A stretch of DNA of 64,000 nt from NCBI GenBank assembly GCA_951813565.1, contig OX638351.1, positions 2,528,001 to 2,592,000 of the forward strand, written 5' to 3'. This DNA comes from an uncultured Poribacteria bacterium. GTDB taxonomy: Bacteria > Poribacteria > WGA-4E > WGA-3G. A program made the position numbers and the translations under genes. Shown piece after piece: positions 13,304 through 13,624 of the stretch. Position 1 is the stretch's first letter; each line of letters begins with the position of its first letter. The notes below the pieces were generated by a model. The model ran no database searches and was not told the origin of the DNA. It saw only the letters and a program-made list of their open reading frames with translations.

Positions 13304-13624
13304 GAGGGGTGTGAATAAATATTTGGCGCATCAACACAGACAAGGACAGACGCCAGGTGCCGCTTGATTTATAGAAATGCGTTTGTAGTCGCGCAATTCA
13401 TTGCCAAATCAACGCAGCATGCGCCAAATCAAGAAATCAACGGTATGAATCATGGCGAATGCCATACGCGCATTCGTCTTTAGGCATTCACCGGGTATGA
13501 ATGCCTTATGGCATTCACCGTGTGGCATGCTGCGCCTCTTTGAACTTGTGGACGGAAACCCACGGCGTGTGCGGACTACCTTTAAGCACATATTTAACAT
13601 CGAAATTATTTATGCACACCCCTC
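13304..13624. mobile_element. 321-bp MITE (related to family A) with nested cassettes
   Basis: TIR GAGGGGTGTGAATAAATA / TATTTATGCACACCCCTC; 8-bp direct repeat AGTTAATT at 13296-13303 and 13625-13632. Confidence 0.9.

Follow-up and report, generated by a model that had tools for sequence, protein, structure and literature searches.

We found that the palindromic nest at positions 13385-13538 of a 64,000-nucleotide stretch of an uncultured Poribacteria bacterium (assembly GCA_951813565.1, contig OX638351.1, positions 2,528,001 to 2,592,000; hereafter the window) is a GTAG-tagged repetitive extragenic palindrome (REP) interrupted by four stacked layers of a 33–36-nt unit. The unit consists of a tag, (CA/G)AATCAAC, followed by a hairpin and a final C; it is a mobile element of the Poribacteria family f1 that has one hairpin and no genes. 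We regard its mobility as practically certain, and put the probability that a Y1-HUH mechanism acting on single-stranded DNA (ssDNA) moves it at roughly 0.5. The initial annotation of the window had described a hairpin cassette of ~34 nt, which the length of the unit bears out. The family is real, mobile and apparently undescribed.

Filled and empty alleles of the unit

The evidence for mobility comes from four protein-coding genes that carry the unit in some genomes and are empty in others. An LplA-family gene contains an exact 36-nt insert in 3 of 30 genomes (G000:C1:4511528-4512346, locus L225, and loci L229 and L230), and in an OGG glycosylase gene a 33-nt insert is clear in 11 of 30 loci, decayed in 3 and absent from 16. 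For a permease gene (Pfam BPD_transp_1), which we take to be PstA-like, 28 loci were returned and 14 aligned, three of which hold an insert of 33 nt. The unit lies in frame in these three genes. The fourth gene encodes a DDE transposase, presumably ISAs1, whose Pfam match lies below the cut-off. Of its 20 loci, one has no coverage of the insertion site. In two of the 19 aligned, different variants occupy one and the same base: a 36-nt variant in G000, where the filled form is present in three copies, and a 35-nt variant in G048.

Nothing beyond one shared C is duplicated in these alignments, in agreement with the earlier observation that the cassette makes no target duplication. Empty targets of all four genes have C at −1, and the next two bases are RG in the LplA, DDE and PstA-like genes and in most empty OGG alleles; in close relatives the empty target reads C-G-G or C-A-G. 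Targets in REP hosts follow the same pattern (^ marks the insertion point), although C^GC, C^GT, C^TG and also T^AG occur there, and C^RG is as frequent an empty target as C^G. The junctions had first been placed at a CG dinucleotide. This is correct for the C|G found after insertion, but the empty gene alleles are often C-A-G, and the target is looser than CG. Several insertions, G-tag events and insertions into GTAG tags among them, replaced one or two target bases, and in one case four were replaced.

Among paralogues, a search that imposed C^G recovered exact empty copies for 40 of 104 distinct junction contexts, and more than 15 unrelated host contexts carry the unit. All four in-gene units have the tag on the coding strand, an orientation that may reflect survival of the reading frame. 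A scan for more 36-nt in-gene events returned only the two known sites plus repeat hosts. Instead of few copies, missing empty alleles or co-inheritance with one family of MITEs (miniature transposable elements with inverted repeats), which the initial annotation had named as grounds for abandoning the idea, we found hundreds of copies, filled and empty alleles, and many unrelated hosts. Its picture of a parasite of REP hairpins holds in part: the unit is minimal and non-autonomous, has no terminal inverted repeats, and nests in REPs and in itself, but it is also found in the LplA, PstA-like, OGG and DDE genes. The unit is not REP-specific; REPs are frequent hosts, yet not the only ones. A decayed copy at G000:C1:2134990 (L476), shared with G006 and possibly in frame, has a stop codon on one side and, on the other, the start of a gene that we take to be ispD-like.

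Architecture of the focal nest

We parsed the nest against un-nested variants of the unit; all of its parts lie on the + strand. It opens with the left part of the host GTAG-tagged REP (13385-13404), the last base of which is the C of a C^G target; the intact, empty form of this REP is found at 57183-57207 on the minus strand, where it had been reported. Layer 1 is an A-type unit with its un-nested form at 31922-31955 (−). Its tag and 5' arm (13405-13424) stop at C^G in its own loop, a target for which there are 14–35 exact empty copies. Layer 2, a B-type unit, is placed in this loop and begins with its tag (13425-13432), at the end of which layer 3, again B-type, is placed with its own tag and 5' arm (13433-13450); we infer this parse from un-nested variants. 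The resulting double-tag compound of layer 2 occurs 119 times, and C ends all 25 of the commonest left contexts listed. Within the layer-3 stem is layer 4 (13451-13478), a unit-related, tag-less CATG-hairpin module of 28 nt with an inverted loop and less certain boundaries. The layers are then completed from the inside outwards by the loop and 3' arm of layer 3 (13479-13492), the hairpin of layer 2 (13493-13519), whose final C precedes the layer-1 G, the remaining loop and 3' arm of layer 1 with its final C (13520-13533), and the right part of the host REP (13534-13538), whose initial G makes the CG:CG base of the unit hairpin complete. A second GTAG REP of a different family (13548-13579, −) faces the host REP, forming a REP doublet module. 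Folding of the nest gives z=-4.3.

This reading agrees with the coordinates and the description first given for the nest, apart from two details. The REP is indeed split (13404/13534), but C^G is the better place for the boundary, one base to the right, with the unit running from 13405 to 13533; because the C is shared, the two placements are equivalent. The inner block, thought to contain one or two more units, resolved into three further layers. Tag-less CATG-hairpin modules of the layer-4 type (24–28 nt) have 84–99 related matches in G000, sited in the stems of other units, and may represent a second micro-element or a template-switch product.

No nest was found at the orthologous gap in relatives, among the 27 of 30 rows listed; with no REP nest there, the whole module is missing, not the unit alone. 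Logan contigs of four runs break at the focal nest, and a metagenome scan for a same-species allele gave four loci, of which the 100%-identical one stops short of the site.

Anatomy, copy number and distribution

The hairpin has a 10–12-bp stem with a bulge in the 5' arm and a loop of 4–8 nt, and is closed by CG:CG, with the last G supplied by the target or located at the junction. The commonest unit, CAAATCAAC followed by the hairpin and a final C, measures 34–36 nt, and 366 units of this type could be collapsed from the G000 genome in two rounds. In a second form of 33–34 nt the tag begins with G in place of CA. A-type stems in G000 occur with both tags (220 with G, 332 with CA), while for B-type stems the G tag counts 0 versus 118, among those scored.

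The genome G000 (5.43 Mb, Ca. Poribacteria) contains 848 tags at 528 loci. The genome-wide pattern search proposed with the initial annotation returned 494 matches in G000 and 0 in the reversed control. In the window, the tag AATCAACG occurs 11 times, compared with 3.7 expected and a maximum of 7 in 100 shuffles. The host REP family of the focal nest has 141 empty and 72 filled copies in G000, plus about 20 variants. At one locus of this genome (G000:C1:3989353-3996420, L011), a reverse transcriptase lies between a presumably cas1-like gene and a CRISPR array of 54 repeats (short palindromic repeats that are clustered and regularly interspaced), and a nested unit is found just past the cas1-like gene. 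GC skew along the genome is very weak and irregular, and transposase families with several copies are numerous, one TnpB cluster having 29 members; this suggests heavy rearrangement.

Covariation between the outer pairs of the stem had been noted from a handful of copies. At the four stem positions left free by the search pattern, Watson–Crick pairs were present in 132, 133, 149 and 135 of 169 distinct variants, exceeding the 78, 79, 121 and 102 expected from column frequencies, although related copies inflate the pairing. The covariation need not mean selection, because arm-to-arm template switching also yields pairing: in quasi-palindromes, it homogenises the arms without selection. Such rearrangements of stems do occur, since G000 contains fusions through one stem, 10 head-to-head and 18 tail-to-tail.

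An all-species genome scan gave 107 stretches; among the 80 of these listed, 79 belong to Ca. Poribacteria and one is unclassified. In a scan of the phylum, the motif was carried by 105 of the 111 genomes of family f1, and genomes outside the family had at most two matches each, like the control. All 39 same-genus relatives carry it, in 8 to 519 copies each, with 563 in G000. The unit sequence has no match in IMG/VR, phage records or Rfam.

Patchy alleles and passengers of REP modules

The LplA insert is identical in three species, in each of which this variant is single-copy, whereas the rest of the gene differs at 120–130 of 783 sites (15–17%). This identity within divergent genes may stem from conversion, transfer or selection. 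Inserts in the PstA-like gene likewise show 0–1 differences over 33 positions. In gene trees built with the insert removed, the filled alleles need three changes for the PstA-like gene, where a single clade is rejected (approximately unbiased test, p-AU 0.001, 15 rows), three for LplA, where it is not (p 0.22, 18 of 30 rows), and two for OGG (p 0.024, 30 rows). Repeated insertion, precise loss and short-patch lateral transfer are possible sources of this patchiness. At the PstA-like site, G000 and G006 have upstream sequence in common, so transfer is favoured there. Divergence is of the ordinary kind in other shared copies, namely OGG and at least four sites common to G000 and G006 with about 1–8 differences.

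We compared 800 kb of G006, 82% identical to G000 and containing 59 unit loci, with G000. Twenty-three loci were non-syntenic, 27 corresponded to gaps scored as unit-less (one with a decayed copy), and nine had a unit, mostly in another context. Among the matches listed, units of G006 usually form part of larger REP modules, each present or missing in its entirety. Because these modules come and go whole, independent insertions number in the dozens, and much of the total of hundreds of copies comes from hitch-hiking. Part of the apparent preference for REPs is survival, since repeats contain 35% of intergenic DCGB sites and selection purges most in-gene insertions.

A candidate ssDNA mechanism

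Insertion is precise and follows a C, mostly at C^GG or C^AG. The sites hit are the stems, loops and tags of REPs, the loop and foot of the unit itself, which produces nests and tandem arrays, and genes, in which in-frame copies survive. Both junctions, left and right, as well as the target, come after C when read on the tag strand, and the tag is 5' of the stem, like a GTAG guide; the geometry is that of TnpA-REP. According to the accessible text of PMC3333891, TnpA-REP cuts ssDNA at C|T flanking one REP and recombines sites of this kind, and in the model it excises single-stranded circles and inserts them again. For a Marinomonas enzyme, the accessible text of PMC8266576 describes a guide whose final G picks the C, with CT, CA or CC cleavable.

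By this route, a Y1-HUH nuclease acting in trans, either a protein like the REP-associated tyrosine transposases (RAYTs) or an IS605 TnpA, would bind the folded top strand, cut after C on both sides of the hairpin and join the unit into a small single-stranded circle. The circle would then be exchanged into a C^N target, as proposed for E. coli TnpA-REP at C|T sites. A double-stranded circle of 34 nt would be infeasible, and a single-stranded dumbbell should be feasible. Later template switching at the palindrome could convert the first target base to G, invert loops and generate the head-to-head and tail-to-tail fusions. Once inserted, many intergenic copies have multiplied as passengers of mobile REP modules.

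Enzymes of the required kind are common in the genus. PF01797 matches were found in 36 of 40 genomes, and the 10 in G000 are five IS605 TnpA and five RAYT-like genes, two with a stop; a custom RAYT profile added no gene to G000. Together with the five in G000, 60 loci from the genus matches gave 65 RAYT-like loci. Their RAYT genes are flanked by their own REP families, and the focal host REP flanks a RAYT in G003 and G045 (L189, L197). At nine of the 65 loci a copy of the unit lies nearby, within other repeats or as a fused pair. The loci L165-L224 reveal many distinct REPtrons in the genus, each RAYT clade having a REP family to itself, in some cases one that lacks a clear GTAG tag, and form a rich set for studies of RAYT specificity. 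A search for IS91 Y2 enzymes gave no match, its positive control being likewise silent, and no half-units flanking a gene were seen.

Several results weigh against the Y1-HUH mechanism. The initial annotation had suggested that an HUH transposase might be bracketed by the same leader and hairpin, and none of the 65 RAYT-like loci has flanking bare units. Conversely, 30 unit loci in five low-copy genomes have neither a neighbour gene nor a RAYT in common. Four genomes with 43–185 copies of the unit have no PF01797 match at all. Three of these four keep 22–134 copies of a GTAG REP and the fourth keeps one; because GTAG REPs persist in genomes without such a match, enzyme loss is common, and the lack of a cognate enzyme is to be expected. 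With AACG as the guide, C^G and C^T are predicted, while C^A targets and a C|C junction on the left are not, and the replacement of target bases is unpredicted by a clean Y1 exchange. No bias towards the lagging strand was seen (255 of 476, p=0.13), with a GC skew too weak to place origin and terminus. Neither an excision intermediate nor a same-species empty allele was obtained from the Logan contigs of four runs or the metagenome scan.

Alternative explanations

Some of these observations would suit movement by a non-HUH recombinase or by host repair, in which a short ssDNA hairpin, excised or copied, is captured at nicks in single-stranded or hairpin DNA through 1–3 nt of microhomology (C, CG, CGG). 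We consider this rather unlikely. It would accommodate the loose target, the lack of a RAYT linked to the unit, the loss of 1–2 target nucleotides together with A-to-G changes at the right junction, and the persistence of the unit throughout the family whatever the Y1 gene content. On the other hand, the tag is near-invariant across the family and the distance between tag and cut is fixed, implying a protein dedicated to reading the sequence, and the in-gene events are exact. G000 has one tyrosine recombinase and three resolvase-family matches, and IS110 is absent, with PF01548 in 0 of 40 genus genomes and PF02371 in none of G000 (controls positive). An IS110 bridge-recombinase element was rejected on this account. 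Transmission through RNA, with the unit processed from a read-through transcript and inserted by target-primed reverse transcription, we judge improbable. The coding-strand tags at all four in-gene sites, a 3' junction more constant than the 5' junction and two reverse transcriptases in G000 are what it would lead one to expect, but units between genes have no sense bias (128 sense, 162 antisense), insertions show neither target duplication nor tail, and no Rfam family matches. Moreover, one of the two reverse transcriptases stands beside the cas1-like gene and a CRISPR array and the other resembles a defence enzyme, both contexts being labels that we presume from sequence.

It is very improbable that the unit is not independently mobile at all, a few old accidental insertions owing their spread to transposition of REP modules, to gene conversion and to lateral recombination. 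The REP modules of G006 that are mostly present or absent as wholes fit such a history, as does the common upstream sequence at the PstA-like site, where short-patch transfer can explain the patchiness. The filled and empty gene alleles largely refute it: four unrelated genes have taken up exact insertions with no REP involved, and in the DDE gene one base was hit by two variants. The more than 15 unrelated host contexts point the same way, as does the compound unit, which follows C in many hosts. Hardly any weight attaches to a Cas1-type integrase re-inserting a spacer-sized piece of 33–36 nt, or to the unit being a stray CRISPR repeat. Its length equals that of a spacer, and G000 has three CRISPR arrays and a reverse transcriptase adjoining the cas1-like gene, but the three repeats are unlike the unit, there are no spacer-separated arrays of it and no repeat-length duplications, and compounds of ~60–130 nt retain the same ends. 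The best Rfam CRISPR match (E=0.99) is below threshold, and we rejected the unit as a CRISPR repeat.

Comparison with known elements

By analogy, the unit may work like a REP-type ssDNA element and like the small dispersed repeats (SDRs) of cyanobacteria. As GTAG REPs, bacterial interspersed mosaic elements (BIMEs) and the REPIN-RAYT system are described in the accessible parts of PMC3333891, PMC8266576, PMC3116915 and PMC3733652, it shares with them a short palindrome whose unpaired tag stands 5' of the stem, copies that number in the hundreds and are mostly intergenic with some intragenic ones, the lack of a target-site duplication and C-first dinucleotide junctions. It is also a stem-loop palindrome within the 20–40 nt used to define GTAG REPs. 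However, its tag is AATCAAC, (CA/G)AATCAAC in full, rather than GTAG or GTGG; it moves singly, as the exact single inserts in four genes show, and not as the inverted doublet of a REPIN; and it inserts into REPs rather than forming them and flanks no RAYT gene (0 of 65 loci). CGTC REPs, in the accessible part of PMC3733652, are likewise tagged palindromes without a dedicated transposase and with a CCA trinucleotide at one end, but their CGTC tag and CCA tail are at opposite ends and they form head-to-head dimers. In the unit, tag and CCA are on one side and insertion is single; only 10 head-to-head fusions were found, sharing one stem.

Rickettsia palindromic elements (RPEs) resemble the unit as hairpin DNA lying in frame in conserved genes and adding peptide. 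RPEs are ~100–150 bp long; by this measure the unit is about three to four times shorter, and it is also mostly intergenic and self-nesting. Derivatives of IS200/IS605 have a hairpin beside the end and no target-site duplication, and the left end of the resident IS605 has TCAA just 5' of its hairpin, a weak resemblance to the unit. We rejected an IS605-derived miniature element, as the unit has one hairpin instead of two ends and does not align to the resident IS605 ends. A MITE was rejected as well, the ends being a tag and a stem arm without terminal inverted repeats, and no target-site duplication of at least two bases being present. By inspection, so was attC: the tag misfits the boxes RYYYAAC/GTTRRRY, and the crossover would lie elsewhere.

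SDRs and the unit are both very small, gene-less and precisely inserting, the precision being evident here from filled and empty orthologues. Elhai et al. (2008) reportedly described SDR1-8 of Nostoc as 21–27 nt long, with no known enzyme. The unit is longer (33–36 nt, against 21–27 nt by that account), belongs to another phylum and has no fixed octamer target, and among the matches listed its sequence has none outside Poribacteria, bar one unclassified. SDR5 inserts precisely between fixed HIP1 bases (PMC4390886, accessible part); the accessible parts of PMC3116915 and PMC3184786 merely name the SDRs and leave them unmentioned, respectively. The statement in the initial annotation that the element has no named family agrees with our literature search, which found no paper on this Poribacteria repeat, with subscription journals mostly outside its coverage.

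Other features of the window

The remaining copies first reported in the window are all present, with small shifts in their ends. The un-nested copy of the outer unit, given as 31923-31956 (−), is an A-type unit at 31922-31955 (−) with its closing C changed to T, and is the second of a tandem pair. The first (31956-31989, −; initially 31957-31988) is an A-type unit with a G-type tag, and the second is placed at C^G at its foot. Single B-type units are found at 47-81 (+), in a GTAG REP of the opposite strand, and at 45850-45883 (+), in the same host family (initially 46-80 and 45849-45882). A truncated copy had also been reported at 1763. The host REP is broken there at the same position (1744-1768, +), but the match to the unit is 6 nt of tag only (1763-1768), so a remnant is compatible but unproven. 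A further host REP family, which is filled at its C^G at other places in the genome, has an empty copy at 16601-16626 (−).

Three further features of the window were observed. A gene-less element of ~410 bp bounded by a left and a right IS605 end occupies 23430-23840; it is a non-autonomous derivative of IS605, and its contig depth is ~8x that of the genome in run X2. Within an 801-aa open reading frame (ORF) of the AI-2E family, the 1156-nt stretch at 29952-31109 is swapped for 1153 other letters in runs X5 and X9; this replacement is an exchanged allele within the species. A 426-aa ORF at 13797-15077 has a signal-like N-terminus and no Pfam match, and is conserved beside the NMT1-like gene in several relatives.

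Significance

The unit is among the smallest mobile DNAs seen. It is possible, if on balance unlikely, that it constitutes a class of its own, one that would combine a micro-transposon of 33–36 nt, made of a tag and a single hairpin, a dedicated putative integrase and a target of C^RG alone with repeated return to the same sites or lateral spread between co-resident species, nested cargo of ~100 nt between unchanged ends, and peptides of 11–12 residues added to conserved proteins family-wide. How very small bacterial repeats such as REPs, SDRs and RPEs are copied is a long-standing question. Exact ends, a short target rule, filled and empty gene alleles and dozens of genus RAYTs make it testable here with oligonucleotides and purified proteins. 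A system that places 33–130 nt at a 2–3-base target, with no scar beyond a shared C, is of possible interest as a tool. In sponge symbionts, small in-frame insertions in proteins and rearrangements centred on hairpins can be seen to arise from the unit.
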